From Bdellovibrionota bacterium (GTDB lineage Bacteria; Bdellovibrionota_C; UBA2361; CALJRW01), in the NCBI GenBank assembly GCA_041740355.1, contig JBGSMD010000063.1, forward strand, positions 53,002 to 117,001: 64,000 nt of DNA, written 5' to 3'. The translations under genes were made by a program, and so were the position numbers. The notes below the pieces were generated by a model. That model had not been told where the DNA came from, searched no databases, and saw only the letters and a list, made by a program, of their open reading frames with translations. Within the stretch, counting starts at the first letter, position 1, and each line of letters starts with the position of its first letter. Shown here piece by piece: positions 33,624 to 47,730 of this stretch.

Positions 33624-35549
33624 TTAAAGATCTACCTCTAACCGATGTGCATTCTCCTGAATTAATTGAAATCGATCTCCTGTTTCCTTACCCAGTAAAC
33701 TTTCTAAGGAAGCATTAACTTCAAATTCATCAACAATATCAATCTGCAACAAGCTTCTTGTCTTTGGATCCAAAGTCGTAGACCAAAGTGTACTTGGATT
33801 CATCTCCCCTAGACCTTTAAAGCGAGTAACTGTAATTTTACGACTAGCAAACTTCTTTACCAACTTCTCTTTATCTTGGTCATTATAAGTCCAATGAGTT
33901 TCTTCTTTATTACCCACGCCTAACTTTACTCGGTAAAGAGGTGGTAATCCTAAATAAACATGGCCATTCTCAACAAGCTTCTTCATGTATTTATAAAAGA
34001 AAGCCATCAGTAATGTAGCAATGTGCATTCCATCCGAATCAGCATCGGTTAAAATAATAACTTTGGAATATCTTAATTTTTTCAAATCAAGACTCTCACC
34101 CATTCCACAACCTAGCACCGCGACAAGATCCATTAGCTCAATATTAGCTGTCACTTTATTACTAGCCGAAGCTACCGTATTCATCACTTTGCCGCGTAAT
34201 GGAAAAATAGCTTGAGTTTTACGATCTCGTCCTTGCTTAGCAGAACCACCCGCCGAATCTCCTTCCACGATAAATAATTCAGACTTATTTGCCTGAGTAC
34301 TAGAGCAATCGGCTAATTTTCCCGGTAAATTTAATCGTCTAGCTGCACCAATTTTTCTGGAGACACTTTGTGATGCCTGACGCGCAGCTTGTCGGGCACG
34401 CGCAGACAATGTAATTCTTTCAATAATTTGATTAGCTACAGCCGGCTGTGAGTTAAGAATGTTTTCTAAACTCCGAGCAACATTTTCCACCGGGGCTGTG
34501 ACTTCCACATTATTTAACTTATCTTTAGTCTGTCCTTGAAACTGTAATTGAGCAACAGAACCAGGAACATTAATGGAAACAATAGCAATTAATCCTTCGC
34601 GAAAATCATCTCCGGTTAATTTAATTCCTTTTAGTTTTACATCATGAACATTAATGTAATTACGAATAGCCTTTGACAAACCATTCTTAAAGCCATCTTC
34701 ATGACTTCCACCCTGAGGCGTAGGAATTCCATTCACAAAAGAAAGAATCTTACTCTGAGTTGATTCCGTCCAAGCAAAAGCTAACTCCACTTTGATACTT
34801 TGATTACTATCAAAATAAAAACTTTCCTTACTAATGGAAGTCATCTTATAACGCTCTAAAAGCATATCTAAATATGCTTTTACGCCATCTTGAAAACAAT
34901 AGGTTTTAACTGTAGCTGCGAGATTATCTTTATAAATAATTTTAAGCCCTTTATTTAAAAAGGCTTTAACTTCCACTAGATGCTCAATTTCAGAACTAGC
35001 AAATTTAGTTAATTTAAAAATTTCAGAATCAGCTTGAAAGTAAATTTTTGTTCCCGTTCTTTTAGTGGCAGTTCCTTTTTGCAACTTCGTCAAAGGCTTA
35101 CCTCGACTATACTCTTGAGTCCAAACAAAACCATCGCGAGCAACTTCAGCAATCAATTTAGAGGAAAGAGCATTAACCACCGAGGAGCCAACTCCATGTA
35201 ATCCACCAGCAGAGGCATAGCTATCGTCGGAAAATTTACCCCCGGCATGAAGTGTTGTTAAAATAATTTCCAGTGCTGGCTTTTTCATTTTTGGGTGGAT
35301 ATCAACGGGGATACCACGTCCATTATCAGCAATGCTGATACCTTGAGCATCTCGATCTAGCTCCACGATGATTTCAGTTGCATGTCCATTCATCGCTTCA
35401 TCAATTGAGTTGTCAAGAATTTCTTTTACTAAGTGATGTAAACCAACAGAGTCAGTTCCACCAACATACATACCAGGTCGGTGCCTCACTGGATCTAAGC
35501 CTTCTAAAACATCAATACTGGAAGCGCTATAATTTTTACTTTTTGTCAT
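33624..35549 (-). CDS. parE: DNA topoisomerase IV subunit B (type IIA topoisomerase ATPase subunit)
   Basis: It has a GHKL ATPase N terminus (LEGLDPVRHRPGMYVGGT, HHLV.EILDNSIDE), a Toprim EGDSAGG and PLRGK. Its 641-aa length (no GyrB insert) and adjacency to a ParC-sized partner favour ParE over GyrB. Confidence 0.8.
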   Translation of the reverse strand: MTKSKNYSASSIDVLEGLDPVRHRPGMYVGGTDSVGLHHLVKEILDNSIDEAMNGHATEIIVELDRDAQGISIADNGRGIPVDIHPKMKKPALEIILTTLHAGGKFSDDSYASAGGLHGVGSSVVNALSSKLIAEVARDGFVWTQEYSRGKPLTKLQKGTATKRTGTKIYFQADSEIFKLTKFASSEIEHLVEVKAFLNKGLKIIYKDNLAATVKTYCFQDGVKAYLDMLLERYKMTSISKESFYFDSNQSIKVELAFAWTESTQSKILSFVNGIPTPQGGSHEDGFKNGLSKAIRNYINVHDVKLKGIKLTGDDFREGLIAIVSINVPGSVAQLQFQGQTKDKLNNVEVTAPVENVARSLENILNSQPAVANQIIERITLSARARQAARQASQSVSRKIGAARRLNLPGKLADCSSTQANKSELFIVEGDSAGGSAKQGRDRKTQAIFPLRGKVMNTVASASNKVTANIELMDLVAVLGCGMGESLDLKKLRYSKVIILTDADSDGMHIATLLMAFFYKYMKKLVENGHVYLGLPPLYRVKLGVGNKEETHWTYNDQDKEKLVKKFASRKITVTRFKGLGEMNPSTLWSTTLDPKTRSLLQIDIVDEFEVNASLESLLGKETGDRFQLIQENAHRLEVDL

Positions 35550-35581
35550 ATCTATTTTTAATACTCTTACTAATTTGAAGC

Positions 35582-37840
35582 TTAATCTTCAATTCCTACA
35601 ACTTCTGATTTCACAGGTAATTTATTTCCCTTCAACCCACGACCAGTTTTCTTAATTTCTTTCAAACTGATCTTTTTATTTTTTAGATCTTTCATTACCA
35701 AGGTGATCTCGCGATCCTTACTCCAAGATACTGCTAAAGCTAATGAGTCTCCTTTCTTAAAACCCATTAAGCTGATTCCTACAGCCGGAGCATTTCGTTC
35801 TTGGACTTCATTCTTATTAATAGTTATGGCGTATCCTTCTCTGGAAATTAAGCTGATCAACTTATCTGGCTCAATGATTGTTCTGAGTTGATCTTCCCCT
35901 TTTAATTTCATGATTCGTTTACCATTACGTTTCACATCGGCTAAACCTTCAATTTTTGTTTGGAATCCTAAGCCATTAGAACTAATTAGAATAAATTCTT
36001 GTCCTTCGGCCAGATAGAACTGGTAATCATTAATATGTCCTAAATCTAAATCAGATAATAATCCGTAGCTGGAAACAATCTTTTCCCCATCTTTAAACTT
36101 CAGGTGTTTCTGAATTGGATCTCCATACCCGCTAGAAGAAGGGAAATCTGTCACAGCCATGCTGTAAACATTTCCTAAGCTAGTAAAGAATACAACTCGG
36201 TCAAGTGTATTTAGTGGATGAGCGACCAATAAAGAATCACCTTCTCGTAAGCGACTAACTACAGGGTCATTTCCTTGACGAATTCGTTTAATCCAACCAT
36301 CCGTACTAACTAAGGCAAAGACTTCTTCTTTGACAACAAAGTCATCAGCTTGAATTTCAAACTGGACGTGATCTTTCAGGATTTGAGATTTACGGTTATC
36401 ACCAAATTCTTTAGCAACATGTTCTAAGTCAGCTTTAACTGTTTCGGCAATTTTCTTAGCACTATCAAGGATTTTTTGAATCTCTGCTAATCTTTTTAAT
36501 TTCTCTTTTTGCTCAGCACGAATCTCTTCGATGTTAGTCCTAGAAAGTTGATAAATCCTTAAGTCAACAATTGAGAAAGATTGAATTTCTGTTAACTTAA
36601 AATGCGCCCGTAATTTTTCTGCAGCATCTGACCTTCCATCACTGCGGCGAACAATCTGAATAGCTTTATCTAGGTCAGCAAAAATCAAGACAAAACCTTC
36701 CAGGATGTGTAGCCGTGCTAGTAAATTTTTCTTTTCAAATTCCAATCGACGACGAACAATGCCTTTTCTAAAATCAAGGAAATGTTGCAACATTAACTTG
36801 AGCGACATTGGCATTGGCACAGTCACTTTATTTTTATCAGGTGCCAGTGCTGTTAAGTTCACATTAAAGTTCTGCTCTAGTGGAGTATTCTTAAACAGAT
36901 AGGCCATAACGTTTTGGACGTCTGAGTCAGCTTGCAACTCAAGTACTACACGGACATCGGTAGTTGACTCATCACGAATATCCACTAACTGTGGGACTTT
37001 GCGATTTATAATTAAATCAGCAATTTTTTCAACCAACTGAGATTTGTTAACCATGTAAGGAACACTTGTAATCACAATCTGTTTCTTGCCTCGGTTTTCT
37101 TTTTCCTCTTTCCAATCGGCACGCATCTTAATTGGACCACGTCCTGTTTCGTAAATCTCTTCTAGCTCTTTTTTAGTGTTGAGAATCTGACAGCCTGTTG
37201 GAAAGTCGGGACCTTTTAATGCTGCGACTAACTTAGAATTAGGCACTTCCGAATCTTCTAATTGTAATAATAAGGCCTTAACAACATCTCTTAAATTATG
37301 TGGTGGAATACTTGTTGCCATACCAACAGCAATTCCAGTAGCGCCATTTACCAATAAGTTTGGTAATCGACTTGGCATGACCACTGGCTCTTTCTTAGAG
37401 GCATCGAAGGTATCACGAAAATCAACTGTTTCTTGATCGATCTCTCCCAATACTTCTAAGGCAATTGGAAGCAATTTAGCTTCAGTGTAACGATATGCTG
37501 CTGCTGAATCTCCATCCATCGATCCAAAATTACCTTGCCCATCAACTAGGCAGTAACGCATGCTAAAATCTTGCGCCATGCGAACCATCGCTTCGTAACA
37601 GGCAACGTCTCCGTGTGGATGATAGTTACCAAGAACTTGCCCAACAATTGTTGCTGACTTTTTATAACTAGAAGTTGGTTTCAGATTTAAGTCGTGCAAC
37701 ATGGCATAAAGAATTCTTCTTTGAACAGGTTTAAGCCCATCACGAACATCGGGAAGTGCTCGCCCGGAGACAACACTAAGTGCGTAGGTCAGGTAACGAT
37801 CCTGTGCTTCCTGTCGAAAAGGTGTGCTAATAATAGTCAT
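35582..37840 (-). CDS. parC: DNA topoisomerase IV subunit A
   Basis: [21 protein letters not shown], the catalytic AAYRYTE and HPHGD are present, and I saw no GyrA-box (QRRGGKG). The start was trimmed to MTIISTPF... at 37840, because the ORF-track N-terminal 58 aa lie inside a repeat element. Confidence 0.8.
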
Positions 37841-37862
37841 ATACTGCTTGGAATTGAATAAA

Positions 37863-38116
37863 CCCTCCGCAGATAACTTGCGGAGGGCGAGCGTAATCTT
37901 GGCTTTTTTACCAGACGTAGCATTTGCGAAGTCTGAAGCCAAGTTGCTCCGTAGAAGATAAAACCAATACTCACCGCTGATTTGCGTAGGGTTTGGTAGT
38001 ATTTTCTTCAGCAAAATCTGTCTCCCTCTTTCGCCAAAGCTTCAGAGGACAATTCGCCAGGATTTTGCTCGTTCACCTTACTTTCATTTTTTATAAAAAA
38101 TGAAAAGCGGTGAGCA
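37863..38116. repeat. Family-1 structured repeat, copy B (~254 nt)
   Basis: It has the same module order as copy A, a perfect first hairpin CCCTCCGCA-N9-TGCGGAGGG, and an internal insertion relative to copy A. Confidence 0.7.
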
Positions 38117-38296: not shown

Positions 38297-38788
38297 ATGA
38301 CATTTTCCAGAACGGATGAAAAATACCAGACTTTAGAGACTCACCTAAGCCAGGATCAGTATTTAATGGTACATCTAAACCCTACTTACCCTGGTGTTTT
38401 AATACCAGAGAATTTTCTTGCTTCACCAACTCTTACACTAAAGTTAAGTTATAATTTTCAAGGAGTTACCGTTATCACCCCAGAATTAATTACGGCAGAA
38501 CTTATGTTTAATGGTAAACATTTTTCCTGCCGAATTCCACTGGCAGCGATTTGGGGTTGCACAACTATTGCTGAGAAAAACTTCATTTGGCCAGAAAGTC
38601 TTTCAGCAAATTCCTATGAGAGTTTAGCCACAGAAATGGAAAGTATTAAAAAACCTAAGTTAGCTGTTAATAAACAAGAAGATATTTCTACACCCTCTTC
38701 TAATCTTAAGAAAATTGAATCTGATCCCAAGCAGGAGGAACCAGTAGCAGAAAATAAAAAACGTCCAAACCTCACTCGAATTAAATAA
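38297..38788 (+). CDS. sspB: ClpXP adaptor SspB-like (stringent starvation protein B)
   Basis: The N-terminal domain pattern (…MVHLNPTYPGVLIPE…TLKLS…F.G….C.IPL.AIWG) is followed by an acidic/low-complexity linker and a basic C-terminal tail, KKRPNLTRIK, resembling the ClpX-binding tail of SspB. Confidence 0.55.
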   Translation: MTFSRTDEKYQTLETHLSQDQYLMVHLNPTYPGVLIPENFLASPTLTLKLSYNFQGVTVITPELITAELMFNGKHFSCRIPLAAIWGCTTIAEKNFIWPESLSANSYESLATEMESIKKPKLAVNKQEDISTPSSNLKKIESDPKQEEPVAENKKRPNLTRIK

Positions 38789-38813: not shown

Positions 38814-41150
38814 ATGATTAATTTAAAAGTTTTGATTGGCTCAACTAAGATTAATTATAATCTTATATCTTTAATTCTAGCTCTTACTTGTGTCCATCTG
38901 AGCATTTCACAAATAATTTCTAGTGAACCAATAAGTGGCTGGGACACTCCAGGGCATCTCTACTTAACATATAAGATGCAAGAATTCTTAGGATTAGGAA
39001 CCTGGTTTGGCTATGATTCAAGCTGGTTCTCAGGCACAGCTCTCTTTGTGCTGTATCCACCACTAACATATATATTAATTAACATATTACATCTTATAAC
39101 TTTCTCTTCTGATCTAACTTATAGTTTTAACCTATTTATTTACCTTCAAGCTCAATTATTAGTAATAATTTTTTACTGGATAACAAAATATATTTTAGGT
39201 GTCGAATATCGGAAATATGTGATGTTGGTGCTCACCTTAATGTTACATACAAACATTATCTATTCGACCCACTTTATAGGATTAGCAGGATTATTTTACG
39301 CAGGCTTTCTATCAAATTGTACAGGGCTAATTCTATTCTTGCTGCTATTTGCACAAATCAGAAAACTGGAATTAAACATTATTAGCTCCTCTTATACTTC
39401 AATATTAATATTGAGCTTGATTTTACTTAACCATATAATCTCAGCAATATTTACTTTAATATTTATATCAATTTACTTAGCCCTTCAGGGAAATTCAAGG
39501 GTAGCGAAAAAATGGTTTGCTGTTATCGCAGTCGCTTCGCTGGTTGCTTCCCCTTATTACTGGATATTTATTGCCAATCTAGAATTTTCATCCTCAGAAG
39601 CTATCGGGCTTCACGGATCTTTTCCCGATCCCTTATTAGTCCTCTTTCCAAATCTTAATATTGAACATTTTGTGAATATGTTTAATGCCGAATTTAGCGA
39701 TACCTTCAGTTTTTTTAACTATAAAATCGAGTTGCCATTAATCATCAGTCAATTTCCATATTATGCGCTGATTGCTTTTTATTTTGGAATTAAAGGAAGT
39801 CTTCTAATTGTTAAAAGTCAAAAAAAACTACTGGGGTTTCTTTTTACAATTACTATCCTCTTCATATTCTTACCTCGCGCTTACTTAACAAACCTAACTA
39901 GCCTGACAATCCACTACTATCGCTTTACTGGCCTGCTGAGTTTCATGTTTATTTTTATAATTGCCTCTGGGATTAAACATTCTGACTACACACATAGCAA
40001 TTTGAAAAAAATACTCGGAGGTATATTTCTTGCTCTGATTTTACTACTAACAACGTCGTATCAGATGCTTTTCATTAGTGATTCTAGACATCAAGAATTT
40101 AAGCTACACCTGAGCGATTATCAAGGATATCAAAACCTAGATAAGGTTGCTAAATACCTTAAAGAGAACAATCTAACTGCAGGTGTTGCAATTGAGCAAA
40201 GCTATAATTTCCTCCTACAAGTCGGTTCCCTTCATGCCGTTTCATATCTTTTCCCGCATAAGTATAAAATCCCAATCAAGACTGGACTACTAGCTGAGTC
40301 AGCTTATTACTCGTCATTAATTAATCCCACTTTAGGTCTTCAAACAAATCACATGGTTTGGGGAAGTAAAGAATTATACCTTTTTAACTATTTTAATAAC
40401 CCAAAAAAAAATCCGAATTTATTTATTGAGAAGCTAAGGCTTTTAGGAGTAAAAGTATTAATCACAACAGATCGGGACAGCTTCAAAAAAATTAAAACCC
40501 TAACTCTTCAAAATCGTTTTCTAGTACTAAATAAAAAGATTGCTAATTATGCTATATTTGTTTTGCCAGAGTTGTCCCTAAAGAAAACCAACTCAATCAA
40601 GCCCCGATATCTATTTTTTGATTCAAAAGAATTAGCATTCAAAATGTTTTTTAGAGACTGGTTTGCTTATGATTCAACGATTAATTTTAACCTAGTATAC
40701 GATTACTTCAATTTGACTCAAAAAGATCCTAGCTTATTAAGTCAATTTTCAGGATTAGTCTTTTCCGCTGAGAATACAAATTCTTGTCTTAAGAATTACG
40801 AAAAGCTGAAGAGCTTGCAAGGTGATCTGAATGAAAAGTTAATCCCCTTAATTGATCAACAAAACCAGCAGCAAGAAAACCCAGCAATCCAAAAGCATAA
40901 GAGAGACTTTTATGATTTAGATATTATTTTCTTGGGTAAGAAGTGTTTTAAAGATCCGAACTGGAAAGTTAAGTGGATTAAAACAAATAATCCAGAAGAG
41001 AGAATGGCAAAACTAACAAAACTAGTTCAAAAAAATAAGCTAAAAATTCTCGTTAATAATAGACTGATTAATACGGAAGATACGTTTAGCCCACTAAATG
41101 GTAATAATTCATTTATCCAAACCCCGTTTTTTACTCTAAAGGTTAGGTAG
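38814..41150 (+). CDS. Large polytopic membrane protein (778 aa), GT-C/YfhO-like architecture
   Basis: The N-terminal ~430 aa hold about 13 or more hydrophobic helices, followed by a soluble ~340-aa C-terminal domain. The gene looks very AT-rich by eye. The family assignment is a guess from architecture only. Confidence 0.55.
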   Translation: MINLKVLIGSTKINYNLISLILALTCVHLSISQIISSEPISGWDTPGHLYLTYKMQEFLGLGTWFGYDSSWFSGTALFVLYPPLTYILINILHLITFSSDLTYSFNLFIYLQAQLLVIIFYWITKYILGVEYRKYVMLVLTLMLHTNIIYSTHFIGLAGLFYAGFLSNCTGLILFLLLFAQIRKLELNIISSSYTSILILSLILLNHIISAIFTLIFISIYLALQGNSRVAKKWFAVIAVASLVASPYYWIFIANLEFSSSEAIGLHGSFPDPLLVLFPNLNIEHFVNMFNAEFSDTFSFFNYKIELPLIISQFPYYALIAFYFGIKGSLLIVKSQKKLLGFLFTITILFIFLPRAYLTNLTSLTIHYYRFTGLLSFMFIFIIASGIKHSDYTHSNLKKILGGIFLALILLLTTSYQMLFISDSRHQEFKLHLSDYQGYQNLDKVAKYLKENNLTAGVAIEQSYNFLLQVGSLHAVSYLFPHKYKIPIKTGLLAESAYYSSLINPTLGLQTNHMVWGSKELYLFNYFNNPKKNPNLFIEKLRLLGVKVLITTDRDSFKKIKTLTLQNRFLVLNKKIANYAIFVLPELSLKKTNSIKPRYLFFDSKELAFKMFFRDWFAYDSTINFNLVYDYFNLTQKDPSLLSQFSGLVFSAENTNSCLKNYEKLKSLQGDLNEKLIPLIDQQNQQQENPAIQKHKRDFYDLDIIFLGKKCFKDPNWKVKWIKTNNPEERMAKLTKLVQKNKLKILVNNRLINTEDTFSPLNGNNSFIQTPFFTLKVR

Positions 41151-41153
41151 TAG

Positions 41154-41312
41154 CTAGTTATAATTCATTTTATCTGCTGTAAATTTTAATTTTTGTGAGC
41201 TAGCTCTTCCCATAGCAGTTACGGCAACGATGGTTACGATAGCGATTAACGCAACAAGTAGTCCATACTCAACTAATGATGCCCCTTTTTTATTTTTATT
41301 TATTTTTTTCAT
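41154..41312 (-). CDS. flp: Flp/Fap family type IVb pilin (52 aa; not in the ORF track)
   Basis: Hand translation gives MKKINKNKKG|ASLVEYGLLVALIAIVTIVAVTAMGRASSQKLKFTADKMNYN*. The G-x-x-x-x-EY motif plus a hydrophobic helix is the Flp signature. Confidence 0.7.
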   Translation of the reverse strand: MKKINKNKKGASLVEYGLLVALIAIVTIVAVTAMGRASSQKLKFTADKMNYN

Positions 41313-41363: not shown

Positions 41364-41960
41364 TTAAATATCTAATTTTTTGCAATTAAGATGGAAATTA
41401 TTAGGTAAATCTACAGTTAGTGTAAACTGATATGCGCCTGCTACTGCTATATTTAATTTAATATTCTGACTGTTTTCGCCATTGAAAAGTGTAAAATCTT
41501 GATTCAAAGTAAGATTAGATCCCTCTTGTTCGAATCCAAATACAAAAGGGCTAGTCCAATCTTGATCTGCGATTTTAAATTCATACTCTCCGGGAATTAA
41601 GGGTAATACTACTCGATAGTTATTCCCGCCAACTGGCAAAAGCTGATTATAAGCTCCCGCTTTCCAATTCTCAATTCGATTAACACGAAGAAACACATTA
41701 CGATCAATACTTTTTATTGGATTATTAGCACTATTTTCTTGCGTAATTGGATTAAAATAAACTACAACGGCCAATAATAAGATTACAAGAAAAATTATCC
41801 CTCCAAAAATCTTGGCATAAGATTCCATCTTTTTCCTAAACCTATATTGTTCTGCGAATTTTTTTAAATTAGCAGTGCTTCTTGATCGAACCGAATCTTG
41901 AATAACATCGCCCAGACCTAATTGATCCTGTCTTTTAAACGTTCTTTTATTAAATATCAT
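41364..41960 (-). CDS. Single-pass membrane protein with C-terminal beta-sandwich-like (CBM-like) domain
   Basis: It has one TM helix (IFGGIIFLVILLLAVVVYF). The C-terminal GEYEFKIADQDWTSPFVFG resembles carbohydrate-binding-module patterns. This is a weak call. Confidence 0.4.
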   Translation of the reverse strand: MIFNKRTFKRQDQLGLGDVIQDSVRSRSTANLKKFAEQYRFRKKMESYAKIFGGIIFLVILLLAVVVYFNPITQENSANNPIKSIDRNVFLRVNRIENWKAGAYNQLLPVGGNNYRVVLPLIPGEYEFKIADQDWTSPFVFGFEQEGSNLTLNQDFTLFNGENSQNIKLNIAVAGAYQFTLTVDLPNNFHLNCKKLDI

Positions 41961-42165: not shown

Positions 42166-42194
42166 TTGTTAGCACTCTGGTTTAGGTGTATATT
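42166..42194 (+). promoter_or_regulatory. Candidate sigma-70-type promoter for the RT operon (TTGTTA-N17-TATATT)
   Basis: The hexamers were read directly from the sequence with a 17-nt spacer, about 80 nt upstream of the RT ATG. In AT-rich DNA such matches are common by chance. Confidence 0.25.
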
Positions 42195-42272: not shown

Positions 42273-43604
42273 ATGAACCTACTGCAAAAACTCTCCTCCC
42301 GTGAAAACTTTTTAGCAATCCTTGATATTTTAAAAAGTAAAAAAAAATCAAAATCTTGGATTCTACAATCTGCCCCGATTGAAAAATCAATATCGCTTGC
42401 TTGGTGTATTTATAACCAAGACTTACTTATCAAGTATTATTTAAAAAACTTAAGAAATCATTCCTATCGCCCACAAGTAAGAATTAAAATGACTATTTTT
42501 ATAGATAAACAAAGGATTATCTATAATATTAACTGGGTTGATAAAATTATGGACTATGCCCTGACTAAACTACTTTTTGATGTCAGTGCGGAATTTTTCT
42601 CCGATCAATTATTTTCCTATCGCCAAGGATTTTCTAATAAAAAAGCAGTAAAAAGCCTCTGTAAATATATCAAGAATAATCAAGGCTCAGAGATCTACAT
42701 TGCCAAACGAGATATTAAATCATACTTCGATAATATTAATAGCGGGATTTTAACCTCACAAATTAAGGAGAAATGTGGCGAGCAAGATTCCTTTTTTTGG
42801 AAACTTTTAAGTAGTTTCTTACAACCAGAATATTATGATCCGGAGCTAGATCTTCAGGAGCAACTACTTCTAGGAATACCAACTGGATCTTGCATCTCTA
42901 ACTTTGCTGCGAATTTTTATTTGCACGACCTTGATCATTTAGCTGTAAACAATTTAGACTTTTATGTTCGCTATGGAGACGATATAATTTTTGCTGATCG
43001 GGATAAGGATAAGCTAAATCAGCTTCTTAATACTTATCAAGAAAAAATTTTGGAACGCGATCTTAAATTCCACCCAGACAAAGATCTATTCCTGAAAATC
43101 GGACCAACTTTAGCAAGCTCCAAAGATTCGCCCTATCAAAGCAAAAAAGTATTTGATTACCTAGGTTACCAAATTAGCGACGAAGGACTTATCTTCCTAA
43201 AGTCTTATAAATTTAAAAAACTAAAAAAGGATATTAAGAGTAGACTATTCAACTCCTATCGCACATATTACCGTGCTGGACTAAGTAAGGATCTGCAAAT
43301 GTCTAATCTGATTAAAGACCTAAATGGTACGATGCGAGATTTAAATTACTATAATCATTTCGCCGATCTTGTCCTATTCACGACTGATAAACCACGACTT
43401 AAGGAATTTGATATTTGGATTGCTCAAACAATTATTGCCATGACTCATAACTGTTCTCGCGCTAATGCGTTTGGGAAAATTTCCTACAGACAAATACGCG
43501 AGGCAGGTCTATTCTCGATTCTAAATTACAAGAATATTTATCCTAGAAGAAATGAAGTTCTCCGATCTACAAAAAATCTCCAAAGCAGATCAGCAACGAC
43601 GTAA
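42273..43604 (+). CDS. Reverse transcriptase (RNA-directed DNA polymerase), orphan/unclassified
   Basis: RT motifs in order: YRPQ...I....R.IY (1), D+I..YAL..LL (2), RQGFS...AV, KRDIKSYFDNI (3), LGIPTGSCISNFAANFYLHDLD (4), YVRYGDDIIF (5; YGDD at 42972-42983), FHPDKDLF (6), FDYLGYQI (7). A ~150-aa C-terminal extension follows. The ATG at 42273 is preferred over the GTG at 42186. Confidence 0.85.
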   Translation: MNLLQKLSSRENFLAILDILKSKKKSKSWILQSAPIEKSISLAWCIYNQDLLIKYYLKNLRNHSYRPQVRIKMTIFIDKQRIIYNINWVDKIMDYALTKLLFDVSAEFFSDQLFSYRQGFSNKKAVKSLCKYIKNNQGSEIYIAKRDIKSYFDNINSGILTSQIKEKCGEQDSFFWKLLSSFLQPEYYDPELDLQEQLLLGIPTGSCISNFAANFYLHDLDHLAVNNLDFYVRYGDDIIFADRDKDKLNQLLNTYQEKILERDLKFHPDKDLFLKIGPTLASSKDSPYQSKKVFDYLGYQISDEGLIFLKSYKFKKLKKDIKSRLFNSYRTYYRAGLSKDLQMSNLIKDLNGTMRDLNYYNHFADLVLFTTDKPRLKEFDIWIAQTIIAMTHNCSRANAFGKISYRQIREAGLFSILNYKNIYPRRNEVLRSTKNLQSRSATT

Positions 43605-45786
43605 TCTTGTCCGTAAAGGACTAGAGCAGTATGATCTCAGATCCTACTTACGCTACTTAAGGTATCGAATTAAATGGCCAATACTTTTTAAGTTACTTTC
43701 TCGACTAATTGTTATTGTTGAAGTGATTCTAATTCAACAACTATTTACTTATAATATTTTTGCAGACTTAACTCTCTATATTTTCATTATTTTTATCAGT
43801 CGAAGCGCCCTAAAAGGTATTACTCAATACTATCGTGTGCAACTAATGCCCCTAGCGACGGCAAAAAACATTTCTGGCCTAAATATCGCCCTAAGTAAGG
43901 CTCTGATCATAAACATCTTTTCTGCCTTTTTATTAGCCTTGGTCATTAGCATTCTTTGTCTACTCTTAGATTTATCGGATCAGTTAAACACTTACTTTAT
44001 AATTTCCTGGTGCTTATTAATCCCGCTAGAGCAAATTACCACGCAGCTTTGGAATACCGTCTATCTTAATACCCGACTAAGGCGAAGTGCCTTGATTACT
44101 TTCATTTGCCGCATGCTTCCAATCATTTCACTATTAGCTTTTAGCAGCTTGATTGGCCCCCTAAGTTACATTCTGGGTACATTTATGGCGAGATTATTAG
44201 AAAGTTTTTACTTATCGCGTGTCGCAATTTTAGCATTAAAGTTCAAATTTACATTAAAGAAGAAATCGAGCAGTTTGTTACAAGTTATCGGACAGTATTT
44301 TAAAAATCAAAAGGCGCGCCAATACCTTTACTTTAATGCCATCCTACCCTGTTATTTTTTGGGTCTTGGATTAATCATCTTTGAACGGGGAGTCGGTACC
44401 TGGATTACAAATATTATTTATTTTTTTATTTTAAATTTTGCAGTTTTTTTTACTACACAAATTTCACGCTCAATTCAATTTGACATCTACTCCTGCTTTA
44501 AAAAAGGGCAGGTAAAAAAAGCAACGTTCTTAGGCAAAAGAATTGTAAAATATACTTTGAACTTTGCTGTAATTCTAGCAGCTAGCTTTATCTATTTACT
44601 CTTAAATTCCAAAAGGTTTTACCTTTTCATACCAATTAGCTTAGAATATTTTCTATTAATCTTACCCTTGGCAGTAATTGCTCAAACGTTTTTTTTTTCG
44701 ATCTATGCCCAAATCCAATCCCTAGCAATCGATCGTTATTTCACCAAGCTAATCTTCATTAGCTTCCTCCTAATAGGCTTACCAATTCAGTTCCTTCTAT
44801 TTCATTATTACCTCGCAAATCTACAAGCGATCTACTGGACTGAAATCCTTCTCTTTGTGTTTGTAGGTACACTATTATATTTAAATTTGAACTTTAATCT
44901 CAGTCCCTTTTTAATAAAGTATATCAAAAGAGAGCGGAAGGCTCTGCCCCTGTGCCAACCAACTGCACTCCAATTAGAGCTCCGAACTAAATATATCAAA
45001 ACTGGCTCAGCTTATCTTTACATATTATCTTATTATGAGCGGGATGCTTTCTGGGAACGCATTAAGTATTCACTTCCCCAAACAAAAGATTTCTTAATTA
45101 CCCGGTACTCTGCTGGGCTCTTCCTGCTTTCATCTCATCAACCACTGACGGATCTTGATTTTCGCAACCTAAGCTTTGTTGCCAAAAAGCAAATAGATTT
45201 AAGCCAAGAGCTACTGCAGACTTTACTGGATATTTATACTTTTTACTATTCTCTAGAATTTAGAAATAGCTCATTCCAAAAAATACGTAATAAGTTCTAT
45301 CTTAATAGATCCATCAAAGAAGAATTGTATCAGTTAGCGGAATTAAAGAGGCCAGTAGATCAAATAATATCAGAGTTGCTTGGAGCTCCTAGGATCGTCT
45401 TCAAAAATGGTAAAATTTCTTGTTTGGGCAAAGTCAGTAATAAACTTTATAATTTTGCTTTGAACCAATATTTTTATCCTGACAATAACTTGGCTCCCGC
45501 AATTCAAGGATCCCAATTAACAATCAGAATTAATAATACGGAAACAATTAGTTTCGACTTAAGGCACTTGAATAGTTACCTAATTGGACAAGTTAATAAA
45601 AAGATTTTTTTCCTCAATCAATATTATTATTTTAAGAATATTATTGATCCCCATTTGCCATATGCAGCTAGCATTCAAGATTATTTAATAGCACGGAGAC
45701 TGATTCATAAACATACCCGTCGCTGTAAAACGAGAAAGGCTGACCATTTAGCAGATCTCAATTTTTATAATCATAAATTAGTATGA
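43552..45786 (+). CDS. Polytopic (~12 TM) membrane protein with ~290-aa soluble C-terminal domain; RT-operon gene 2
   Basis: About 12 hydrophobic helices were counted by eye between aa ~40 and ~450 (MOP/MATE-flippase-like spacing). No motif was recognised in the C-terminal domain. It overlaps the RT gene by 53 nt and the PLD gene by 4 nt. Confidence 0.65.
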   Translation: MKFSDLQKISKADQQRRNLVRKGLEQYDLRSYLRYLRYRIKWPILFKLLSRLIVIVEVILIQQLFTYNIFADLTLYIFIIFISRSALKGITQYYRVQLMPLATAKNISGLNIALSKALIINIFSAFLLALVISILCLLLDLSDQLNTYFIISWCLLIPLEQITTQLWNTVYLNTRLRRSALITFICRMLPIISLLAFSSLIGPLSYILGTFMARLLESFYLSRVAILALKFKFTLKKKSSSLLQVIGQYFKNQKARQYLYFNAILPCYFLGLGLIIFERGVGTWITNIIYFFILNFAVFFTTQISRSIQFDIYSCFKKGQVKKATFLGKRIVKYTLNFAVILAASFIYLLLNSKRFYLFIPISLEYFLLILPLAVIAQTFFFSIYAQIQSLAIDRYFTKLIFISFLLIGLPIQFLLFHYYLANLQAIYWTEILLFVFVGTLLYLNLNFNLSPFLIKYIKRERKALPLCQPTALQLELRTKYIKTGSAYLYILSYYERDAFWERIKYSLPQTKDFLITRYSAGLFLLSSHQPLTDLDFRNLSFVAKKQIDLSQELLQTLLDIYTFYYSLEFRNSSFQKIRNKFYLNRSIKEELYQLAELKRPVDQIISELLGAPRIVFKNGKISCLGKVSNKLYNFALNQYFYPDNNLAPAIQGSQLTIRINNTETISFDLRHLNSYLIGQVNKKIFFLNQYYYFKNIIDPHLPYAASIQDYLIARRLIHKHTRRCKTRKADHLADLNFYNHKLV

Positions 45787-47513
45787 AATCCAAAAGTTTA
45801 ATCTACTTTATTTTCATTTTACTAAGCTTAATTATTGGACTATCGCTCCACGCTGAGAGAATCGAAATACCTCTTTACGTTCTACGAAAAGCAATTACTT
45901 GTTCTAGTGTTCAAGAGAAAACATTGGAAGTTGTTTTCCAAAACAAGTCTTATTTGATCGCATTTGACCATATTTACAGTACTCCCGTTATTAATGCAGG
46001 TTTAGTCTGTCAACGTTTGATCCGCTACTTAAAAGCAGCGCCTTCGCCCAATTTAATCATCCCTATCTCCAAAAAATATACCAAGTTCGGCCATGATATT
46101 TATGTCGATGAATCAGGATTTTTAGAAAAAGCTTGCCTAGAACAAGGGCTTTGTAAGCGAAACATCTTGGATACTTTTAAGCCCAAAAAAATACTCCGTG
46201 AATGTCATGGGAAAATTACACTAAACGGCTTATTGGCAAAATCTCGTCCCAAAATTCCTGGCTATCAAACAAAAATCATTAAAGATGTTACAATTAAAAT
46301 TCACCCATTTCATCCATTTATCAATATTCTAAATGAATACCTTCAAGATCCAATTTTAAAGGAAATTCATGCCTCTACTATGTCAATTGGTAATCAAGCC
46401 CTAGACGATATTTCTGCCAGCACGCAAAGCTACAATAAAAAGGCTGTAATTAATTATGATGCCGGAATTTCATTGTTCAATTCTCAACAAGGCCAAATTG
46501 CTAAGGCTATTACTAAGTCACCTAAAGTTCATTTTTTACCAATGACCAGTGGTAATAATTTTAGCCAATTTTATCACATCAAATTTATTGCTAGCCCACA
46601 AACTAACAAGTCAATGTTGGCCTCAATGAATTTAGCCTCAGTAGATCGAACAGCATATCTCGACCTAAATTTTTTCTTTGAGGATCCTACTATTCGCGAT
46701 GAGTTTTTATCCATCTCAAATAATAATAATCGAAGATTTTGTGATTATTCTGAAGATTATGACTGCTTAGCAAATTTTTATGATGAAAGATCAAAATCCC
46801 ATATTCCACTGGTAATAAATAGAAGTTGTCCGACAAGCAATACCGAAACTACTATCAAAAGATCTGGTTACTTTGTAAACTCCGAAGATGATGATCTCAA
46901 ACAATTTGTGATAAACTTTATTAATCAAGCAAAACAAGAAATCATTGTAACTTCCTACAAGTTAACAGAAAGAGCCATTGCCAAGGCCTTATTAAACAAG
47001 CAGCAAGAAGGGCTTAAAGTTCACGCCATGTTAGCCTTTAAATCTCCCGCATTGGGCGAATTGAAAAGCCATTTCTACTCGGGGGAAGTTGTTAAGGAAG
47101 AGTATCCTTTTCCTCACATGAAAATTATTATTATCGATCGCCGACTAATGCTATTTGGAACTGCGAACTTCACGATTAATGCTTTAAATAATACAACTGA
47201 ATTAATTGGAGTTACTGATAATCAGCAAGCAATTAAAACAGCGTTAGATCATGTCGCAGTTTTTACACAGTCCAAAGATCTGGCCTTAAGTAAAAACATT
47301 TCCAATACTCCTAAGCAGAAAAATTATGTAGCAGTGACGAGCTCTACGCAGATCAAACCAGTGAATTTACCTTTTACTAAACCGCTTGAGCAGAAATGGT
47401 TATCAAACTACCGAGAGGTAACAAAGGAAGGCGAAAAATTATTAGATAAGTGTGATTTAAGGCACCTTATTTTTATAACTAAGGCAACTTATTTGGAATG
47501 TCTTAAAAAATAA
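45783..47513 (+). CDS. PLD-superfamily (HKD) enzyme with N-terminal signal peptide/anchor; RT-operon gene 3
   Basis: The canonical HKD motif HMKIIIIDRRLMLFGTANFT (HxKxxxxD-x6-GTxN) lies at 47115-47168. A degenerate first motif, HIKFIASP...ASMN, lies at 46575-46641. The N terminus MKSKSLIYFIFILLSLIIGLSLHA is signal-like. Confidence 0.8.
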   Translation: MKSKSLIYFIFILLSLIIGLSLHAERIEIPLYVLRKAITCSSVQEKTLEVVFQNKSYLIAFDHIYSTPVINAGLVCQRLIRYLKAAPSPNLIIPISKKYTKFGHDIYVDESGFLEKACLEQGLCKRNILDTFKPKKILRECHGKITLNGLLAKSRPKIPGYQTKIIKDVTIKIHPFHPFINILNEYLQDPILKEIHASTMSIGNQALDDISASTQSYNKKAVINYDAGISLFNSQQGQIAKAITKSPKVHFLPMTSGNNFSQFYHIKFIASPQTNKSMLASMNLASVDRTAYLDLNFFFEDPTIRDEFLSISNNNNRRFCDYSEDYDCLANFYDERSKSHIPLVINRSCPTSNTETTIKRSGYFVNSEDDDLKQFVINFINQAKQEIIVTSYKLTERAIAKALLNKQQEGLKVHAMLAFKSPALGELKSHFYSGEVVKEEYPFPHMKIIIIDRRLMLFGTANFTINALNNTTELIGVTDNQQAIKTALDHVAVFTQSKDLALSKNISNTPKQKNYVAVTSSTQIKPVNLPFTKPLEQKWLSNYREVTKEGEKLLDKCDLRHLIFITKATYLECLKK

Positions 47514-47518
47514 AAGAA

Positions 47519-47650
47519 AAAAGAGTTGGGCGGAATTTAACGCTTACCTGCTCTATAATATCTGCCGTCAGAACCTGCACCTTTCTCCGAAGGCGTATTT
47601 ACAGATCCCCCTTGCGTTTGGAGAAGCCCGAAGGCGACAACCCAACTCTT
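47519..47650. ncRNA. Candidate structured element: GC-rich ~110-nt core closed by a 10-bp inverted repeat (AAGAGTTGGG...CCCAACTCTT)
   Basis: The inverted repeat was read directly. On the minus strand the core contains GCC-UUCG-GGC and a second UUCG, plus UUCUCC/GGAGAA pairing. The minus strand is followed by a U-rich tract. The strand, and whether it is transcribed at all, are unknown. Confidence 0.3.
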
Positions 47651-47730
47651 AATTTAATATTACCATAGCAATTTAACGATAAACAATGATTTATTTTTAA
47701 AGTTCTAAGAAAGGAATGTAATTAAAAGTT

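Follow-up and report, generated by a model that had tools for sequence, protein, structure and literature searches.

The window analysed here, a 64,000-nucleotide stretch of a Bdellovibrionota genome, carries on its forward strand three overlapping genes followed by a conserved structured non-coding element. The first gene (42273..43604) encodes a reverse transcriptase (RT) of 443 amino acids with an intact YGDD active site, the second (43552..45786) a polytopic membrane protein of 744 amino acids, and the third (45783..47513) a PLD-family protein of 576 amino acids, whose start overlaps the end of the membrane-protein gene by 4 nt (ATGA). The non-coding element occupies 47516..47652 and is tentatively assigned to the minus strand. 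The cassette constitutes an undescribed four-part RT system, composed of a non-coding RNA (ncRNA), the RT, the 744-residue membrane protein and a periplasmic PLD, in the branch of the family to which the window belongs. The original prediction had not included the PLD gene and the ncRNA in the unit. PADLOC does not assign any of the three proteins to a named system, and a literature search for RTs with a MATE, flippase or PLD partner returned nothing relevant.

The 443-residue length of the RT is counted from the ATG at 42273, whereas the mechanically called reading frame opens at a GTG at 42186. A promoter-like site lies upstream on the same strand (42166..42194, TTGTTA-17-TATATT), matching 9 of 12 consensus positions with a 17-nt spacer; it is a consensus match only, and such sites are no more numerous in the region than in shuffled sequence, so that it constitutes weak evidence.

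The membrane-protein reading frame, which is confirmed, begins 53 nt inside the RT gene, just as the original prediction had it. Its ATG at 43552 is the earliest ATG, GTG or TTG after the in-frame stop at 43525, and the alternatives are GTG codons at positions 58 and 96 and an ATG at codon 99. The earlier statement that no in-frame methionine follows for more than 100 codons was therefore about right, although the next one is in fact found at codon 99. Residues Y35, R39 and E57 are 96–100% conserved across 24 family members and precede every alternative start; judged from this conservation, translation must begin at 43552. The N-terminal sequence MKF(S/T)xL is also kept from residue 1 in three orthologues, where the overlaps with the RT gene are 53, 53 and 20 nt, and the proposed overlapping start is real. 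Translation of the membrane-protein gene is coupled to that of the RT gene.

The reverse transcriptase

The RT matches Pfam RVT_1 (1.4e-19), has orthologues of 443 and 431 amino acids, and retains invariant catalytic aspartates at positions 236 and 237. Its best PADLOC profiles are RT_UG26 (112 bits, almost full length), UG17 (87 bits) and Drt9, with the top hits spanning 82–112 bits, and generic and group II RT models score level with these three. The closest solved chain is 9ioa_A, a 499-residue ‘RNA-dependent DNA polymerase’ (3.8e-28), followed by the group II RT GsI-IIC (3.7e-26). On the basis of profile scores the RT is placed in an unclassified clade near UG26, UG28 (DRT9) and UG17 (DRT10).

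Assignment to a retron or to any named DRT was rejected, as the scores are far below the levels of the respective models. Genuine UG26 RTs obtain 507–531 bits in the same scan as against 64–112 bits for the window clade, the window RT itself reaching 112, which removes it from UG26. UG17/DRT10 is characterised by a SLATT partner of 2–3 transmembrane (TM) helices, whereas the partner here has twelve and no PADLOC match. The retron model NF038233 gives 34 bits against a cutoff of 235 and there is no Rfam retron match; the group II intron model TIGR04416 gives 107 bits against a cutoff of 300, with no Intron_gpII or D1–D4 match in Rfam at E<=1. No template/variable repeat pair of a diversity-generating retroelement was found near the RT, nor any direct repeats longer than 35 nt at >=65% identity between 38000 and 48500.

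These results bear on the idea that the cassette is a mobile retroelement, be it a group II intron, a retron or a diversity-generating retroelement, with cargo genes. The RT is indeed about as similar to group II intron RTs as to DRTs, as the TIGR04416 and GsI-IIC scores indicate. With both family models so far under their cutoffs, no group II intron or other element recognised by Rfam, no template/variable or long repeats around the locus and a cassette that is single-copy and syntenic between genomes, this explanation is extremely improbable.

The membrane protein

The 744-residue protein starts with an amphipathic helix, which is followed by twelve TM helices (residues ~43–447), an α/β domain (~452–720) and a basic tail. 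The count of about twelve hydrophobic helices made at the outset is borne out by hydropathy and by the AF2 model, which is confident when built with a 24-sequence alignment (with a 2-sequence alignment the pLDDT is 36). Members of the MOP superfamily have 12–14 TM helices arranged in two six-helix lobes around a V-shaped central cavity, and the model of the 744-residue protein displays all of these features. The membrane domain thus has a MOP-superfamily (MATE/Wzx/MurJ-like) fold, in agreement with the flippase-like character first proposed for it. At the sequence level the protein stands outside these families: none of 24 family members matches MATE (PF01554), Polysacc_synt or MurJ/MVF in Pfam at E<=0.01, and neither an NCBIfam scan nor a PDB sequence search with the protein returned a match. 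A fold search against BFVD returned nothing.

The protein belongs to the inner membrane, where by the positive-inside rule both termini are predicted to lie inside, and the basic α/β domain of ~270 residues is cytoplasmic. A conserved basic cytoplasmic face is made up of Y35, R39, R95, Y171, R175, R178 and D311. In MATE transporters the acidic residue or residues that couple to cations are found in TM1 (NorM/DinF type) or in TM7/TM10. Here E57 lies in TM1 and is shared by all 24 members, the comparison with MATE being by sequence position and not by residue-level superposition. In a sister branch of the family an invariant histidine is found about one turn from the E57 position in place of the glutamate.

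The C-terminal ~290 residues are soluble and net basic (43 K/R versus 24 D/E), a property shared by 23 of the 24 members. As the original prediction noted, this region has no recognisable motif: it has no sequence match in Pfam, NCBIfam, PADLOC or the PDB, a PDB profile search with the domain alone gave no usable match, and a Pfam scan of the domain from 16 members at E<=1 gave nothing usable. The basic tail (722–744), also predicted, is present; it is predicted to be disordered (pLDDT <50) and is conserved among close relatives only.

The PLD-family protein

The third protein is two-lobed, with a hydrophobic signal or anchor helix at residues 6–24 and a Cys-rich N-terminal region of ~160 residues whose cysteines are conserved. 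It matches Pfam PLDc_2 (2.4e-16) as well as the DrmC and NucT models, and in the PDB it finds NucT (6ehi, 1.2e-13) and Nuc (1byr, 1.1e-11). The second lobe contains the catalytic motif of Nuc-type PLDs, HxK(x)4D(x)6G(S/T)xN, as HMKIIIIDRRLMLFGTAN at residues 445–462, unchanged in 9 homologues, with H445, K447, D452, G459 and N462 invariant, and the first lobe keeps HxK...SxN. From these matches the protein appears to be a Nuc/NucT-like phosphodiesterase of the nuclease type, with the extracytoplasmic nucleases NucT and Nuc as its nearest matches.

Its N-terminal helix and conserved cysteines are consistent with a secreted or periplasmic enzyme, which would lie across the membrane from the cytoplasmic C-terminal domain of its partner. 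In one lineage the membrane protein and the PLD are fused (P0033), and the fusion retains a 13th hydrophobic helix between its two parts, which places the PLD in the periplasm.

Distribution and genomic context

The membrane-protein family is very small, with 26 representatives (clusters) among 1.84 billion proteins. A close-alignment search of 185,579 species genomes matched a single MAG, one already among the loci, and a tblastn search of plasmids with the membrane protein found no match. The family is patchily distributed, on contigs of low as well as high GC where the neighbouring genes are unrelated. At each of the 11 distinct loci examined (the window, L001, L003, L006, L007, L008, L009, L012, L013, L014 and L016) an RT of one clade lies directly upstream of the membrane-protein gene, the junction being an overlap of 1–53 nt or a 1-nt gap, and the PLD gene is present in 10 of 10 loci of the window branch with enough flank. 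The sister branch comprises at least 15 metagenomic RTs (HMM E 1e-65 to 1e-93), each of them followed by an overlapping gene for a ~700-residue polytopic protein that is homologous to the 744-residue family (hhalign 97.8%, E 1.3e-12, 534 columns). No HKD motif was found in the sister-branch flanks, which are often short. The best explanation is that the RT and the membrane protein form a conserved core and that the PLD is an accessory of the window branch.

The neighbours are mostly housekeeping genes (gyrase, ribosomal proteins, DHO dehydrogenase) and not defence islands in the roughly 11 neighbourhoods seen; a HigB-like toxin, an HNH gene and an AbiEi gene occur near the cassette in two loci. 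In two genomes that are ~60–70% identical at the protein level the cassette occupies the same chromosomal locus, as a single-copy, syntenic unit, and its position is steadier than that of typical defence genes. A neighbouring 198-residue protein has no homology to the neighbour in L003.

In each of the three closest genomes an Flp pilin gene lies 0.1–5 kb from the cassette in spite of rearrangement; a TadE gene is found near L009 and a prepilin-like open reading frame abuts the RT in L039. A general link with pilins was rejected by a motif scan beyond the closest clade, as it is absent from most loci. An unassigned polytopic protein of 778 residues is encoded near the window cassette, and a weakly GT87-like gene near L001.

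It could be argued that the membrane protein has a common housekeeping function as a flippase or MATE exporter (Wzx, MurJ or a drug pump) and that an RT gene just happens to be its neighbour. Its MOP fold would suit such a role, as would the 778-residue polytopic protein and the GT87-like gene nearby. The glycan-type neighbours are not kept outside the closest relatives, and in place of a Wzx-type glycan cluster the protein is accompanied by the RT and the PLD, the other neighbours being unrelated housekeeping genes. The tiny size of the family, the lack of MatE, Polysacc_synt or MurJ matches in any of the 24 members, the RT next to it with overlapping reading frames in every one of the 11 contexts and the fusion to a PLD in one lineage together indicate that it is not a housekeeping flippase. 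This possibility, which the original prediction had named as the outcome that would overturn it, is largely refuted and very unlikely. The protein is instead a dedicated RT partner that is, as first suggested, of transporter size and far larger than the known membrane effectors of DRTs and retrons.

The candidate non-coding RNA

The element at 47516..47652 is made up of an 11-bp closing stem, a GCC-UUCG-GGC hairpin, a hairpin with a pyrimidine tract and GGGGGA, and a U-rich tail. With its equivalent in L001 it shares 81% identity over 157 nt, and with that in L003 68%; in all three it is found immediately 3' of the PLD stop codon with a differing right-hand neighbour. In the minus-strand reading, paired cells make up 97.5%, 8 cells are G.U, and a single pair varies as GU/GC/AU; the MFE z-scores are -1.76 for the minus and -2.83 for the plus strand. 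The ncRNA of the window clade is tentatively placed on the minus strand, antisense after the last gene.

In five loci of distant relatives (L009, L012, L013, L014 and L016) an analogous element is located upstream of the RT, with closing stems of 9–15 bp and six different sequences. In the window, the DNA ahead of the RT gene showed neither a conserved sequence nor a long-range stem, and only 44 and 78 nt are available there in L001 and L003. A structured element with a covarying closing stem adjoins the RT system in 8 of 8 tier-1 loci with flanks, and is a candidate ncRNA partner of the RT. The window-clade element is likened to the upstream ones by shared architecture and not by a significant model score. 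When RNAalifold was applied to a MAFFT alignment of seven elements, the small hairpin alone was recovered, as the arms of the closing stem are out of register. Rfam, at gathering thresholds and at E<=1, returned three tRNAs only, all distant, and nothing for the element. In sampled UG26 loci an upstream element of ~125 nt with a long closing stem and a U tail is likewise present.

Relationship to known systems

Research on RT-based bacterial systems such as retrons and DRTs is moving fast, and every type resolved in turn has brought to light a surprising way to make or use DNA. To our knowledge, the membrane partners of retrons and DRTs are all small pore-type proteins. The closest parallel is with UG17/DRT10, of class 2 UG/Abi, which similarly has a free-standing RT of ~430 residues, an adjoining structured ncRNA and a membrane-protein gene with overlapping stop and start, and for whose membrane protein a response to RT-made DNA, or its export, has been proposed. 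The window system differs in that its partner has a 12-TM MOP fold with a 270-residue cytoplasmic domain in place of the 2–3 TM SLATT protein, in its additional periplasmic PLD, in the 87 bits its RT scores on the UG17 model, and in its ncRNA, which in the window clade follows the last gene and is probably antisense.

UG26, a class 2 UG/Abi group whose role in defence is unresolved, supplies the best PADLOC profile and resembles the system in the stem-closed upstream element. Its RTs are not followed by a polytopic protein, however, quite apart from the gap in bit scores, and a Vsr-like endonuclease has been reported as their partner (PMC9226505). TM partners are also required by, or frequently associated with, the UG1 and UG5 RTs (PMC9226505). 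As here, these RTs (DRT1, RT-nitrilase) have an adjacent downstream membrane protein, but they exceed 1000 residues and carry fused nitrilase domains, and the TM proteins that accompany them are small and unrelated. The membrane protein is set apart from MATE, Wzx and MurJ by its sequence, by its extra cytoplasmic domain and by its association with an RT as opposed to glycan or drug-resistance genes. The PLD resembles Nuc of pKM101 and NucT of Helicobacter pylori, the best matches of its C-terminal lobe (1e-11 to 1e-13), in its intact HxK(x)4D(x)6GxN motif and its extracytoplasmic location, whereas its length of 576 residues, two lobes per chain, Cys-rich N-terminus, RT operon and one fusion distinguish it from them.

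Proposed mechanism

The best explanation, to which we assign a probability of about one half, is a new system of DRT-like type in which an effector or export arm would span the envelope, the function of the system being predicted. The RT would use the ncRNA as template or scaffold to make a cytoplasmic DNA product, as class-2 DRTs do. The basic cytoplasmic face and the basic C-terminal domain of the membrane protein may then bind this phosphate-rich product or the RT complex, and the MOP domain, with an invariant, protonatable TM1 glutamate that may correspond to that of MATE antiporters, would either translocate the product or a derivative of it to the periplasm or open as an ion-leaking effector. 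On the periplasmic side, phosphodiester bonds would be cut by the PLD. The most likely role is DRT-type defence against phage or mobile elements, through an effector arm directed at the envelope. The mostly housekeeping neighbourhoods, the stable locus and the lack of a PADLOC system count against this explanation.

Within this scheme, it is a rather doubtful proposition that the MOP-type transporter receives the RT product, or a derivative linked to lipid or protein, and moves it across the cytoplasmic membrane, to be processed by the PLD in the periplasm. That the protein is an export conduit, as originally suggested, rather than a gated or pore-type effector is something we infer, and it is not obvious that a cavity of MATE/Wzx size could be a conduit for long DNA.

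Export could also serve a purpose other than immunity. The RT–ncRNA DNA, or a DNA conjugate, would be exported by the MOP protein, and the PLD would trim it or transfer it to an envelope or extracellular acceptor by phosphodiester exchange, to give for example surface or extracellular DNA, possibly tied to Flp/Tad pili. A transporter fold with an invariant TM1 glutamate and a basic cytoplasmic face fits this well, and an extracytoplasmic PLD fused to the transporter in one lineage follows a logic of export and then processing outside. The stable position in two diverged genomes, the housekeeping neighbours and the pilin-type genes of the three closest genomes, L009 and L039 point the same way. 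Such a pathway is nonetheless unlikely, as the pilin link is missing at most loci, the sister branch is without a PLD, 26 sparse and patchy clusters are a better fit to an accessory conflict system than to a physiological pathway, and we know of no precedent for the passage of DNA through a MOP transporter.

Alternatively, no transport may be involved at all: the MOP fold would be a gated pore that collapses the membrane potential upon an RT–ncRNA trigger, and the PLD an independent second effector that degrades phospholipid or DNA. RT-SLATT (DRT10) and the 2TM effectors of retrons offer an analogy, the sister branch keeps just the RT and the membrane protein, and the conserved residues lie, as far as sequence position tells, on the cytoplasmic face and not in the substrate cavity. 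Yet twelve helices, a full MATE-like architecture and a conserved acidic residue in TM1 exceed the needs of a pore, and a cytoplasmic RT cannot directly switch a periplasmic enzyme without something crossing the membrane or signalling across it, so that a simple toxin is an improbable reading.

Significance

The DRT-like system proposed above brings together three new protein families and an RNA that are missed by current annotation and defence-finder tools. A full transporter fold, a conserved and putatively coupling-type residue, a basic cytoplasmic domain and a periplasmic nuclease-type enzyme, in one case joined to the transporter in a single chain, suggest that a phosphate-rich cargo may cross the membrane. 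It has long been speculated that RT-derived DNA is exported by membrane partners, and in that event the system would make the idea concrete and testable. If the RT product is indeed handed over and moved out, no earlier pathway would be known in which a flippase-like transporter actively exports RT-made DNA, be it for immunity, signalling or an extracellular DNA structure.

The membrane protein and its gene

The membrane protein of 744 amino acids is encoded at 43552-45786 (+) by an ORF that overlaps the end of the RT ORF (at 43604) by 53 nt, and the PLD ORF starts at 45783 within its stop region (ATGA). Its frame is open, from stop to stop, from 43525, and the first canonical start therein is at 43552. 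The original prediction held that no alternative in-frame methionine follows for more than 100 codons; this was a slight overestimate, as a GTG lies at codon 58 and the next ATG at codon 99. The overlap and the start are upheld, since Y35, R39 and E57 are 96-100% conserved among 24 homologues and all precede codon 58, such that the protein in its conserved form can arise only from 43552, inside the RT gene. The N-terminal sequence MKF(S/T)xL is common to three orthologues even though these overlap the RT gene by 53, 53 and 20 nt. In more distant relatives the two genes are separated by up to 1 nt or overlap by up to 26 nt, and translational coupling is therefore the rule; the 53-nt overlap is particular to the sub-clade of the window because the RT C-terminus is longer there.

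Hydropathy analysis gives about 12 hydrophobic segments. K/R-rich stretches are found N-terminally and in alternate loops, a pattern consistent with both termini being cytoplasmic (N-in/C-in). An AlphaFold model built with 24 family members (pLDDT 86.4, pTM 0.86) starts with a helix, which is followed by 12 transmembrane helices (to residue ~447), an α/β domain (452-720) and a disordered tail. When this model is compared with the PDB by Foldseek, the first 31 matches are MATE transporters (best E 7e-7; target TM-scores between 0.58 and 0.72), with WzxE and MurJ ranking below them, and the membrane domain is therefore predicted to adopt the fold of the MOP superfamily. Both the 12 helices and the flippase-like fold proposed from the sequence are thus borne out. 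The C-terminal soluble domain had been described as lacking any recognised motif and, in agreement, the protein has no match in Pfam, NCBIfam or PADLOC, nor in a sequence search of the PDB. At the sequence level it belongs to no known family. A housekeeping flippase is essentially excluded, as Pfam matches none of the 24 relatives.

Gene neighbourhood

A word-indexed search of 5.8e9 proteins returned a single homologue (58% identity), and when 1.84e9 cluster representatives were searched exhaustively with HMMER, 26 family proteins emerged, nearly all of 700-780 amino acids. Genomic contexts were looked up or fetched for 11 distinct loci. An RT of ~425-450 amino acids lies immediately upstream on the same strand in all 11 (with an additional HMM check), and a PLDc_2 protein of ~550-590 amino acids is encoded in each of the ten loci with enough flank. 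The PLDc_2 gene usually sits immediately downstream of the membrane-protein gene, but it is convergent in locus L012, upstream and divergent in L013 and upstream in L006. At L009 (8001-11951) and L010 (255-4205) it is fused in frame to the membrane-protein gene, encoding P0033 (1316 amino acids), and the RT gene precedes with a 4-nt overlap. The genes around the cassette vary by locus and include those for gyrase, flagellin, ribosomal proteins, DHO dehydrogenase and adhesin-like proteins.

A TSCPD-domain gene lies divergently just upstream of the RT gene in the two most divergent loci of this branch, L006 (3394-3759, -) and L007 (129-509, -). In the window and its close relative L001 the cassette is preceded by gyrB-gyrA (window, 33624-38014, -) and a weakly SspB-like gene (window, 38297-38788, +). 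Read from a TTG, the gyrA ORF of the window encodes 810 amino acids; the L001 gene is called at 752, and translation in the window therefore probably starts at a later codon.

In each of the three closest genomes, and in spite of rearrangements, the cassette has a gene for a Flp-family pilin (motif KKGASLVEYGLL) within 0.1-5 kb (window, 41154-41312, -; L001, 16009-16167, -; L003, 9707-9922, +). In L009 a TadE gene is 2 kb away from the cassette, and in L039, a sister-branch locus, the RT gene adjoins a prepilin-type (N_methyl) ORF. The remaining loci gave no pilin gene in a motif scan, so the Flp link may reflect lineage synteny. The Flp gene is flanked by genes for a 778-residue polytopic protein (38814-41150, +), which has no Pfam match and is 71% identical to a 758-residue L001 protein, and for a 198-residue protein with a single transmembrane helix and a β-rich domain (41364-41960, -). 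This block lies before the RT gene in the window and after the PLD gene in L001, and has therefore moved relative to the cassette.

The PLD partner

The PLD protein has a signal-like N-terminal helix (residues 6-24, ...SLHA/E), is rich in cysteine in its N-terminal region and contains two PLD lobes, of which the first retains HxK and SxN and the second the invariant HxK(x)4D(x)6GxN. Its closest solved relatives are NucT (1.2e-13) and Nuc (1.1e-11), both extracytoplasmic nucleases, followed by Zucchini/mitoPLD. In P0033 the C-terminal soluble domain and the PLD part are joined through a hydrophobic helix (residues ~715-735), and the two should therefore lie on opposite sides of the membrane. 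Together with the positive-inside topology, we infer from this that the basic C-terminal domain is cytoplasmic and the PLD periplasmic.

The reverse transcriptase and its sister branch

The RT has an intact YGDD motif and a ~140-residue C-terminal extension conserved in its clade. PADLOC models score it at 112 bits (RT_UG26 and generic RT), 93 (RT-Cas1), 87 (UG17) and 82 (Drt9), and in the PDB it matches 9ioa_A, a 499-residue RNA-dependent DNA polymerase (3.8e-28), and GsI-IIC (3.7e-26). Despite the UG26 model sharing the top score, RTs of this clade reach only 64-112 bits on it versus 507-531 for genuine UG26 RTs from the metagenome scan (RT alignment), and membership of UG26 is therefore rejected. 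A mobile retroelement is essentially excluded by the NCBIfam models for group II RTs (107 bits, cutoff 300) and retrons (34 bits, cutoff 235). The RT appears to be an unclassified neighbour of the class-2 UG/Abi and group-II-like RTs.

The same scan revealed a second tier of RTs, a sister branch (HMM E 1e-65 to 1e-93; metagenome contigs L018-L039). Almost every one, where the contig continues, is followed by an overlapping polytopic ORF of ~680-760 residues, with the last transmembrane helix near residue 430-460. An alignment of nine of these proteins matches the membrane-protein family profile in hhalign with a probability of 97.8% (E 1.3e-12) over 534 columns; the two groups are homologous. 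Y35, R39, Y171, R175, R178 and D311 are invariant in both branches, and each of them is predicted to face the cytoplasm. The available tier-2 flanks, which are often short, contained no HKD motif. The RT and MOP-like protein appear to form the conserved core, with the PLD specific to the branch of the window. Several sister-branch loci, such as L022, L025, L034 and L035, have long-range stems ending just before the RT start, and L035 has an AbiEi gene 1 kb downstream.

A candidate ncRNA

The non-coding DNA upstream of the RT gene shows no conservation between the window, L001 and L003, there being only 44 nt in L001 and 78 nt in L003. Conservation is found directly after the PLD stop, where a structured non-coding element (47516-47652, tentatively -) lies in a block that shares 81% identity with L001 over 157 nt and 68% with L003; the right-hand gene beyond differs in all three. 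It folds into an 11-12-bp closing stem around several hairpins and has no family match in Rfam.

L009, L012, L013, L014 and L016 have a comparable element on the RT strand, 20-140 nt before the RT gene. These upstream elements have a 9-15-bp closing stem, a first hairpin, a pyrimidine tract (CUUCUCC / CCUCCUC / CCUUCCC...) and a small hairpin closing on GGGA/GGGGGA, usually with a U-run after the 3' arm. The closing stems comprise six unrelated sequences, all complementary, and a perfect stem of at least 10 bp arises in only 2-10% of shuffles per locus. The L016 element has a folding z of -6.4, and from a crude alignment RNAalifold again predicts the small hairpin, with CG 7/7, UG/UA/CG and CG/UG pairs. 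In the window clade, the motif order of the upstream elements and a U-rich tail occur on the minus strand only, where 97.5% of 80 pair cells are standard, including 8 G.U that on the plus strand would read as A.C mismatches; one pair varies GU/GC/AU. Folding energies do not decide between the strands, and hence the minus-strand assignment and the homology of the two positions are probable, not proven. The element is probably the ncRNA of the system.

In the sample, loci of a UG26-like tier likewise have, upstream of the RT gene, an element of ~120-130 nt, with a purine-rich/pyrimidine-rich closing stem of at least 9 bp and then a U-run (L046, L048, L058-L062, L068-L072, L076, L077, L082, L087, L089, L093, L095 and L096). 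The three RTs of this UG26-like tier that were tested (L062, L072 and L093) all exceed 500 bits on the UG26 model. This element looks like an undescribed UG26 ncRNA and fits a shared RT-ncRNA habit.

Possible mechanism and role

The anatomy, co-occurrence, gene fusion, folds and intact RT and PLD catalytic motifs are established computationally. In DRT2, DRT9 and DRT10 an ncRNA is reported to template the RT product and, by analogy, an RT-ncRNA complex may make DNA in the cytoplasm. The membrane protein, through its basic cytoplasmic face and C-terminal domain, would then engage this product or the RT complex; its MOP domain may translocate something phosphate-rich or act as a gated leak, and the PLD would cleave phosphodiesters in the periplasm.

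The non-defence neighbourhoods, and a chromosomal position conserved between two genomes ~60-70% identical in protein sequence, speak against a role in defence. Nonetheless, a defence or conflict role is favoured because of the affinities of the RT, the precedent for an RT with a membrane partner, the very scattered occurrence among unrelated genomes and the fact that the PLD is lost or gained as a module.

Neither the UG/Abi survey (PMC9226505), in which the term PLD is absent, nor full-text literature searches yielded a description of an RT associated with a MATE/flippase-fold protein or a PLD. Systems of the type RT, ncRNA and membrane partner have precedents; what appears to be new is the RT clade, the family combining a MOP fold with the C-terminal domain, the two-lobed, putatively periplasmic PLD family, the fusion and the candidate RNA.
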